Assembly: GCF_003334785.1 (NCBI RefSeq)
Contig: NZ_QOWV01000006.1
Direction: 5' to 3' (one strand)
Source of the DNA: Escherichia coli
Lineage (GTDB): Bacteria; Pseudomonadota; Gammaproteobacteria; Enterobacterales; Enterobacteriaceae
DNA: 64,000 nt
Below are positions 1 to 2,235 of the stretch, one piece after another; positions within the stretch are counted from its first letter, which is position 1; the number at the start of each line of letters is the position of its first letter. The position numbers and the translations under genes are program-made. The notes under the pieces were generated by a model. It was not told the origin of the DNA. It did no database searches and worked only from the letters and a program-made list of their open reading frames with translations.

Positions 1-294
1 CAGCACAATAGCGCCGAGCATAATTACGCGTTTAGTACCCAGTACCTTGTCACCTAACCAGCCGCCGATAGCGACCAGACCATAAACCAGGGCACTAAAG
101 GAAGAGAAAAGGGTGATTGAATCCGCTTCAGACATACCCAGTTGTTTAACCAGGTAAACAGCCATAATTCCTTGTAGGCCGTAATAACCAAAACGTTCCC
201 ATAACTCAATCGAGAAGATGAGATAGAACGCCTTCGGTTGTTTGAAAGCGTTCAAACTGACGCTTTCAGTTGGTTTTTGGTTTGCAGTGGACAC
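1..294 (-). CDS. dtpA: Dipeptide/tripeptide:H+ permease DtpA (TppB), N-terminal 98 codons only; 3' end lies beyond window start
   Basis: Hand reverse-complement translation from GTG at 292-294 gives [39 protein letters not shown]..., a POT/PTR2 family N-terminus matching E. coli DtpA; runs off the window so not in the ORF track. Confidence 0.85.
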
Positions 295-904
295 TTTTAC
301 CTCTTTTTTTACATCCCATATTAACGGGGGTGCTTTCTCGCGTTATGTATAAAAAACATACGCGCAATTGTTATAGTGGGAGGGGAAACGGCAGGTAATG
401 TTCACTATCTTGCACTTTCAGACAAGTCCTTTGTAATAATCTGTTACATATAACTGAGGCGGGGAATTCAACCATTCCGGGAAATGTTATCCAGCGTTAA
501 ATTTTTCAAAAAACGTAACGGCAGATTTTTTCACTGCACTGAGAGGGGGGTGATGGCTTAACGGCGATATGTTCTGCTATTTAGCGTTTTTACTAGTGAG
601 ATAGTCCAGTTTCTGAAAAATAGCCAGTGTAATGTTTTGTAGGTCAATATTTGTTGCGTGTGTAAATTTAAATGATTTTAACCTGATTCTTGCAATGTTT
701 TTACATTGCGACAGCATCGTGATCTTGATCACGAATGAATAGAAAATTTCGCTATTAAAAAAACAATTAACCTGCATTTTTGGTTATCCGCAAACGGATT
801 ACCTGATGATAACGCTAAGCAATGGCATCATTGACGTTAAAAAGATGTTTTAAAAGAGGATAAAGAAAGGTTATCAATGGGGTAATCGGTGTTACCCCTT
901 TTCT

Positions 905-1540
905 TCAGATGTCAACTTTCTCTTTGTATTCACAAAGATCTTCAATAATACAAGAGCCACAGCGGGGCTTGCGGGCAATGCAGGTATAACGCCCGTGCAG
1001 GATCAACCAATGGTGGCAGTCGACTTTAAACTCTGCTGGAACCACTTTCAGTAGCTTTTCTTCTACCTGTTCGACGTTTTTCCCCGGCGCAAATTGAGTA
1101 CGATTACAAACGCGGAAAATGTGCGTGTCGACAGCAATAGTCGGCCAGCCGAATGCAGTGTTTAATACGACGTTGGCTGTTTTACGACCTACGCCGGGCA
1201 GGGCTTCAAGCGCAGCACGATCTTCCGGAACCTCGCCATTATGCTGCTCCAGCAAGATACGGCAGGTTTTGATGATATTTTCTGCTTTGCTGTTATAAAG
1301 CCCAATCGTTTTGATATAGGTTTTCACCCCTTCAACGCCCAGTTCAAGCATCGCTGCAGGCGTATTCGCCACCGGGTAGAGTTTCGCCGTCGCCTTATTA
1401 ACACTGACATCGGTCGCCTGAGCGGAAAGCAGTACGGCAATCAGCAATTCAAAAGGCGAACTGAAATTAAGCTCGGTGGTGGGATGAGGATTGTTCTCAC
1501 GCAGGCGAGTGAGGATCTCCAGGCGTTTTGCTTTATTCAT
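905..1540 (-). CDS. nth: Endonuclease III (DNA glycosylase/AP lyase, 4Fe-4S)
   Basis: 211-aa ORF; HhH-GPD motif (LPGVGRKTANVV) and C-terminal Cys cluster CIARKPRCGSCIIEDLC; last gene of the rsx-nth operon. Confidence 0.96.
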   Translation of the reverse strand: MNKAKRLEILTRLRENNPHPTTELNFSSPFELLIAVLLSAQATDVSVNKATAKLYPVANTPAAMLELGVEGVKTYIKTIGLYNSKAENIIKTCRILLEQHNGEVPEDRAALEALPGVGRKTANVVLNTAFGWPTIAVDTHIFRVCNRTQFAPGKNVEQVEEKLLKVVPAEFKVDCHHWLILHGRYTCIARKPRCGSCIIEDLCEYKEKVDI

Positions 1541-2235
1541 CAGACATTCCCTGTTTCACCGTTTGGCAATGCACGTTCTGCAGCTGCTTCAGCACGGCGC
1601 TTTTTCATTCTTTCATCAATCAGGTATTTTCCTGCCAGCATCAGTCCCAGGCCAATAAATGCACCTGGTGGCAGCATCGCCAGCAGGAAAGGGGAGTCGG
1701 TGTGGAAAATCTCCACGCGTAATACTTTTGCCCAGCTACCTAACAGCGCATCTGCACCGTCAAACAATGTGCCATTGCCGATAATTTCGCGTAGTGAACC
1801 CAGCACGAACATGGCGCAGGTTGCGCCCATACCAATTGAAAAGCCGTCCAGTGCCGAAAGCGCCGGACCTTTTTTGGCGGCGAAGGCTTCAGCGCGGCCC
1901 ACAACGATACAGTTAGTGACAATCAGCGGAATAAAAATCCCTAATGATTGATACAGGCCAAAGGCGTAGGCGTTGATCAGCATCTGTACAGCGCTGACCA
2001 CCGAGGCGATGATCATCACGTAAATGGGAATGCGGATCTCGGCTGGCGTCCAGTGACGCAGCGTCGAAATGGTCAGGTTGGTCAGCGTCAGTACCAGCGT
2101 AGTCGCAAGTCCTAAACCCAGAGCGTTAGTGGCAGTGGACGTGACCGCCAACAGAGGACAAAGGCCGAGCAACTGGACCAGCGCAGAGTTGTTTTTCCAC
2201 AACCCCTGAACAATAACGTCTTTAATTTCGCTCAC
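1540..2235 (-). CDS. rsxE: Ion-translocating oxidoreductase complex subunit E (Rnf/Rsx)
   Basis: 231-aa polytopic membrane ORF; stop overlaps nth start; position in rsxABCDGE cluster. Confidence 0.94.

Follow-up and report, generated by a model that had tools for sequence, protein, structure and literature searches.

A stem-loop just downstream of nth in Escherichia coli very probably forms the 3' end of the nth message

Immediately downstream of nth in Escherichia coli, a short GC-rich hairpin is found next to a run of thymidines that lies on the strand opposite to the gene. The question raised by this locus is which strand the hairpin serves: it could close the nth message, it could also halt transcription arriving from the other side, or it could end an unannotated RNA. 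The window analysed here is a stretch of 64,000 nucleotides from E. coli contig NZ_QOWV01000006.1, and the positions given below are those of the window, in which both nth and dtpA are encoded on the minus strand (Table 1). Positions 1-1600 match K-12 MG1655 (NC_000913.3) with 100% identity in reverse-complement orientation, and coordinates are converted as K-12 = 1713063 minus the window position. In the K-12 RefSeq annotation, nth (1711523-1712158) and dtpA (1712769-1714271) are both genes of the K-12 plus strand, and no feature is annotated between them. The nth gene is the final gene of the rsx-nth cluster and stands upstream of dtpA in a tandem arrangement, with no gene on the plus strand of the window converging on the hairpin. 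The segment is present at an identity of at least 95% in 5424 of the 5426 complete E. coli genomes. The long non-coding spacer between the two genes, which an earlier note made from the sequence had put at about 610 bp, measures exactly 610 bp (295-904; K-12 1712159-1712768) and has a GC content of 36.9%, as compared with 49.9% for the whole window.

Table 1. Features of the nth-dtpA region, in window coordinates
Feature	Position	Strand	Description
nth (endonuclease III) CDS	1540..905	minus	from the ORF list; stop codon TGA at 905-907
nth 3'-end stem-loop (very probable assignment)	879..898	minus	GGGGUAA-CACCGA-UUACCCC; 7 bp, 4 G-C pairs, 6-nt loop
A-rich spacer AGAAAA between nth stop and stem	899..904	minus	its complement, with part of the stop codon, gives the plus-strand TTTTCTTC
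Mapped nth 3' terminus	864..877, dominant 873	minus	RNA end ...UUACCCCAUUGAU-3', 6 nt past the stem (published map)
Pyrimidine-rich, G-poor stretch, possible Rho loading region	825..878	minus	suggested by nucleotide composition
dtpA promoter block	367..452	minus	conservation 0.65-0.94 across 42 species; most conserved block of the spacer
Predicted dtpA 5' UTR	295..364	minus	stem-loops at 364-339 and 333-311, then the invariant, A-rich UGUAAAAAAAGAGGUA ahead of the GTG
dtpA (dipeptide/tripeptide permease), 5' part	1..294	minus	GTG start at 292-294; from translation and RefSeq
CRP-type palindrome CGTGATCTTGATCACG	718-733		perfect 16-bp palindrome; belongs to the dtpA regulatory DNA, not to the hairpin

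The letters of the hairpin and of its flank are all in place as the earlier note had described them. On the plus strand, GGGGTAA (879-885), the loop TCGGTG (886-891) and TTACCCC (892-898) are followed by TTTTCTTC at 899-906, while the same stretch read along nth is UGA-AGAAAA-GGGGUAA-CACCGA-UUACCCC-AUUGAUAACCUUUCUUU, with the stem beginning 6 nt past the stop codon. The hairpin had been said to overlap the nth stop, which holds for the T run, by 2 nt, and does not hold for the stem, which ends 6 nt away from it. Folding of the nth strand gives -9 to -10.5 kcal/mol. The plus strand, in which 8 pairs including one G-U enclose a 4-nt loop and are followed by UUUUCUUC, with 6 U in 8 nt, reaches -11.3 kcal/mol. 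The U tract available on the nth strand, AUUGAUAA, is poor, with 3 U in 8 nt and a longest U run of 3. A terminator consensus scan called the plus strand at the hairpin and did not call the nth strand.

Several of the features that define an intrinsic terminator are nonetheless found on the nth strand, namely a stem of at least 5 bp with a loop of 3-8 nt, a position just 3' of the last gene of the unit and, according to the published map discussed below, an RNA 3' end no more than about 10 nt past the stem; the feature lacking is the U-rich tract of about 5 or more U in 8 nt. On the plus strand, a stem-loop and a U tract are combined in the common E. coli allele only; upstream of them there is no gene and no promoter above chance, and the 'LB RNAtag-seq' sheet of the published map lists no 3' end on this strand. 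The pattern of letters is by itself weak evidence. Six terminator-like sites were found in 1.7 kb against 2.0 +/- 1.3 expected by chance from shuffled sequences, and the fold z-scores of the hairpin are about -2.1 on the plus strand and about -2.4 on the minus strand. The hairpin is deemed real because its position is conserved among relatives and because an RNA 3' end has been mapped next to it.

This 3' end appears in the work of Bar et al. 2023 (PMC10687069), where the sheet 'LB RNAtag-seq' of Supplementary Data 3 lists for nth a terminus of the class 'Primary' at 1712186-1712199 on the K-12 plus strand, with 1712190 as the dominant position and the same hairpin displayed. Its signal is 0.72 (rank 1191), with adjusted p-values of 1.7e-18, 2.6e-32 and 2.2e-22 in the three LB libraries, and the terminus is listed again in Supplementary Data 2 for re-analysed published datasets, at 1712185-1712195, with the same dominant position and a signal of 0.57. 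The offsets of the sequence column of the 'LB RNAtag-seq' sheet were verified with its row for the thrL attenuator and are consistent. The suggestion that the hairpin is the nth terminator is thus supported by a primary nth 3' end that maps to the gene's strand, 6 nt beyond the stem. To describe the plus strand, with its T run, as the wrong strand for nth was misleading, as the stem-loop functions on the nth strand despite the poor U tract.

The same sheet interleaves the rows of both strands by coordinate, so the opposite strand can be read from it as well. The rows adjoining nth are an rsxE-internal terminus (+, 1711443), a dtpA-internal one (+, 1714063), the dtpA primary terminus (+, 1714323) and one of pdxY (-, 1714982), and the sheet holds no opposite-strand 3' terminus between K-12 1711457 and 1714980, an interval that includes the whole spacer. 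In this map, therefore, no end falls near 905 on the plus strand of the window and the nth transcript ends at the hairpin, the two observations on which the earlier note had been prepared to give up its plus-strand reading. A point against the nth assignment is that no nth or dtpA 3' end and no entry at 1712xxx turned up in the portion covered of the stringent Term-seq tables by Adams et al. 2021 (PMC7815308). The matches in the TERMITe supplements (PMC12207403) are in Streptomyces rows only. A full-text literature search for the hairpin sequence or for 'nth-dtpA' returned no match.

The second line of evidence comes from the comparison of 80 enterobacterial nth loci, in 45 of which nth is followed by dtpA. 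Of the 45 syntenic species, 38 have a hairpin at least as stable as -9 kcal/mol that starts no more than 20 nt from the nth stop, with a median of -13.2 kcal/mol; among 135 control windows drawn from these spacers the share was 15%, with a median of -5.5. Conservation in the spacer is lowest over roughly 120 nt next to the nth stop (785-904), with an identity to E. coli of 0.24-0.45, and the identity of the hairpin region across relatives is only 0.24-0.29. The nth 3' structure is thus held in position while its sequence turns over. The stem is unchanged in five E. coli lineages, and in E. albertii its outermost pair is altered on both sides by a compensatory change from G-C to U-A. The flanks of the relatives' hairpins carry a mean of 3.5 T of 8 downstream versus 1.8 A of 8 upstream; at least 5 T are found downstream in 9 species, and at least 5 A upstream in the two E. 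coli loci only. This composition, richer in T downstream than in A upstream, indicates that the hairpin of the relatives is oriented for the nth strand.

The nth-dtpA distance in the 45 syntenic loci ranges from 522 to 718 bp and is mostly 570-640 bp, and this length of about 570-640 bp is kept from Escherichia to Serratia even though much of the sequence is not conserved. Four further loci, from Kosakonia, a soil MAG, Enterobacter sp. EA-1 and Phytobacter, have a distance of 1.06-1.18 kb as compared with about 0.6 kb. The extra DNA that follows the nth stop in these four appears GC-rich and coding-like, and is perhaps a small inserted gene.

Within E. coli, the plus-strand T run is allelic. 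A 50-nt query with the K-12 allele has an exact match in 4008 of the 5426 complete genomes, and the TGATCTTT allele has one in 946. B2-type strains such as DS566-1 and GN04133 read CCCC-TGATCTTT-AG at this place, with a TAA stop and an identical stem. Beyond E. coli, the position of the T run is occupied by TTTGCGTT in E. albertii, and the A-rich flank is absent from this species and from all other genera examined. The loss of the T run in a sixth of E. coli genomes, with the stem untouched, is unlike what would be expected of a terminator needed on the plus strand. The T run is nothing more than the other strand of the A-rich stretch that separates stop codon and stem in the common allele of E. 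coli, and has no demonstrated role. The nth stop codon is itself polymorphic in the species, TGA in K-12-type strains and TAA in B2-type strains (positions 850-858 in the compared loci L082 and L083), and this change is linked to that of the spacer from AGAAAA to AGATCA (window 899-907).

Taken with the mapped terminus, the conservation of position leads us to assign the hairpin at 879-898 with high confidence to the 3' end of the nth mRNA, on the minus strand. RNA polymerase leaving nth would reach the stem within 6 nt of the stop codon, and the 7-bp GC-rich hairpin, together with the weak tail AUUGAU, would release or stabilise the RNA at 873 (K-12 1712190). The stem-loop thus probably serves the rsx-nth message in two ways, terminating it intrinsically, if leakily, and protecting its 3' end. 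Incomplete termination is to be expected from a tail with only 3 U in 8 nt, and leakiness is also suggested by the comparison with the intrinsic terminator of the neighbouring gene. The dtpA terminator (GCCGCUAAC-UUUUC-GUUAGCGGC followed by U9, K-12 1714323) resembles the nth structure in being a GC-rich stem-loop shortly after the stop of the last gene of a unit, with an RNA 3' end a few nt past the stem. It differs in its U run, 9 as against 3 in nth, and in its signal in the tables of Bar et al. (PMC10687069), 0.99 as against 0.57-0.72 for nth, on a scale that approaches 0 when read-through is complete. The stem lies so close to the stop codon, at 6 nt, that a terminating ribosome would cover it, and the efficiency of termination may depend on how tightly translation follows transcription.

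Polymerases that read through the stem would enter an untranslated, C-rich and G-poor stretch where Rho could act. The C/G ratio on the nth strand is 3.75 in window positions 884..825, and the read-through RNA is G-poor for about 60 nt, a composition that possibly favours Rho loading. It is established for RNA decay in E. coli that 3' exonucleases trim transcripts back to stem-loops, and such trimming of read-through transcripts would produce the same mapped end. Dar and Sorek in 2018 and Wang et al. in 2019 reportedly described Rho-dependent 3' ends that are trimmed back to a protective stem-loop. The nth end is like these systems in its stable stem without a proper U tract and its 3' end a few nt further on, as well as in the C-rich, G-poor untranslated RNA downstream, with the role of Rho being putative here. 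A mapped 3' end alone cannot separate termination from processing, and the nth end would be shared between direct intrinsic termination and Rho-dependent termination followed by trimming.

The alternative that keeps most of its ground, unlikely as it is, holds that the hairpin is bidirectional and also halts antisense transcription, spurious or regulated, heading into nth from the AT-rich dtpA regulatory DNA. Bidirectional intrinsic terminators between convergent genes were reportedly found by Ju et al. in 2019 by SEnd-seq. The nth hairpin is similar to these in being near-symmetric, with an A-rich 5' flank whose complement turns the other strand into a hairpin with a U tract; the plus strand, with a fold of -11.3 kcal/mol and a tail in which 6 of 8 nt are U, fits the textbook pattern, and the AT-rich spacer contains weak plus-strand promoter-like hexamer pairs, for example at 678-707. 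However, nth and dtpA are in tandem, with no convergent gene, and the 3' ends on both strands that characterise such terminators come down to one strand in the 'LB RNAtag-seq' sheet, where the interval from K-12 1711457 to 1714980 is free of opposite-strand termini. The T run is moreover replaced by TGATCTTT in the 946 genomes mentioned above, next to the same stem, and the A-rich flank is not conserved in E. albertii or in the other genera examined. The promoter candidates of the plus strand are no better than the background rate of the window: the best one from a hexamer-weight scan, that at 678-707, scores 8.5, and about 0.7 such candidates per kb per strand are found window-wide. With no opposite-strand terminus in that sheet, no convergent gene and a T run that is not conserved even within E. 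coli, the qualifier 'bidirectional' that the earlier note had attached to the nth terminator finds no support.

A narrower form of antisense transcription is improbable, though not absurd. In strains with the TTTTCTTC allele, the hairpin would also be a plus-strand terminator, ending an unannotated antisense RNA of about 140-220 nt that starts at about 700-770, in conserved A/T-rich sequence by the CRP site. If this were true, such a terminator would shield nth from antisense transcription, or would give a lineage-specific small RNA.

We give very little credence to a plus-strand small or antisense RNA gene proper, which would start in 680-770, end at about 905 with the hairpin as its terminator and have a length of about 140-220 nt. 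Such a gene would profit from the terminator-like site that does exist on the plus strand, and the CRP palindrome (718-733) together with a conserved A/T-rich stretch (740-774) could in principle drive divergent transcription. Nevertheless, its would-be body would be 785-904, where conservation in the spacer is lowest, and its candidate -10 elements (TAAAAA/TATTAA) are poor. The sheet of Bar et al. (PMC10687069) lists no 3' terminus on the plus strand, the K-12 RefSeq annotation has nothing there and the T run of its terminator is polymorphic. A scan of window 1-2000 against Rfam, with E values up to 10, returned noise only (the best match scored 19 bits, the gathering score being 229), and a consensus promoter scan found none on the plus strand of 1-1700, which suggests that transcription does not start on this strand. 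The portions covered of the Cappable-seq (PMC4782308) and SMRT-Cappable-seq (PMC6131387) supplements list no coordinate at 17101xx-17107xx (U00096.2 numbering), so the suggested lack of a plus-strand start is read from the sequence. A literature search for dtpA with antisense gave nothing relevant. No convincing promoter and no conserved sequence or structure, such as would mark a small-RNA gene, were thus found. The proposal that an antisense or small RNA ends at the hairpin is not supported, there being no promoter above chance, no Rfam family and poor conservation of 785-904.

Translation of the two-codon ATG-GGG-TAA (877-885) from an upstream AAGAGG...AAAGG serving as ribosome-binding site is barely conceivable, even if its letters and those of the Shine-Dalgarno-like AAGAGGATAAAGAAAGG (854-870) are where the earlier note had placed them and AAAGG ends 6 nt before the ATG, since the frame sits inside the stem, which explains its persistence in E. 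coli, is lost in E. albertii (ATG-GGT-AAA-CGA...) and has no plus-strand transcript known to carry it. None of the five spacer ORFs tested is intact in relatives. Those ORFs, of 66, 42, 36, 34 and 25 aa, were rejected as genes because they contain stops in close relatives or have no match beyond them.

The rest of the AT-rich spacer is dtpA regulatory DNA. The promoter block contains tandem GTAAC/GAAAC repeats at 448-399, which are OmpR-like and probably represent OmpR sites, and a -10-like TATAAC at 375-370, from which transcription of dtpA is predicted to start near 363 (K-12 about 1712700). Activation of dtpA/tppB by OmpR has been described (PMC5175337), and in long-term stationary-phase evolution an A-to-T mutation adjacent to the dtpA -10 element recurs and raises the dtpA mRNA about 23-fold (PMC7858067). 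With transcription starting near 363, the 5' UTR would be about 69 nt long and would open with the stem-loop at 364-339. Pair counts support both predicted stems, with 74.8% paired as compared with 35-51% in slid controls, as does a covariation score of 0.238 versus 0.06-0.11, with compensatory changes across genera. RNAalifold found no consensus structure in the alignment of this UTR, the two hairpins being given by single-sequence folds and pair counts, and no Rfam family was found for it.

Further upstream, about 360 bp from the predicted dtpA start, the CRP-type palindrome has two mismatches to TGTGA-N6-TCACA, no more than chance would give in the window, and it is conserved as TGTGA-N6-TCAC across genera, in most Enterobacteriaceae. 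Shimada et al. 2011 (PMC3105977) list tppB (= dtpA) among the genomic-SELEX targets of CRP. Another block of the spacer, AAATTTAACGCTGGATAACATTT (504-482), has an identity of about 0.9 across 42 species. A stretch of 21 nt at 844-864 shows 76% complementarity to 295-315, where the dtpA ribosome-binding region lies, and would place an anti-SD-like CCUCUUUU on the read-through RNA; this long-range pairing is probably due to chance, and 844-864 is not conserved across genera.

The hairpin is ordinary, and its site is already known from a published 3'-end catalogue. What is more interesting in the spacer is the control region of dtpA, with its probable OmpR sites, its conserved distal CRP-type site, its predicted structured 5' UTR and its conserved length, features that are mostly known or expected too. 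For the biology of E. coli K-12, the nth hairpin marks the 3' boundary of the rsx-nth transcript, and its value lies mainly in annotation. It also carries a lesson, in that a hairpin whose U tract is poor in the direction of its gene and good in the other may nevertheless end that gene's transcript, and that to assign the strand by the T run alone misleads.
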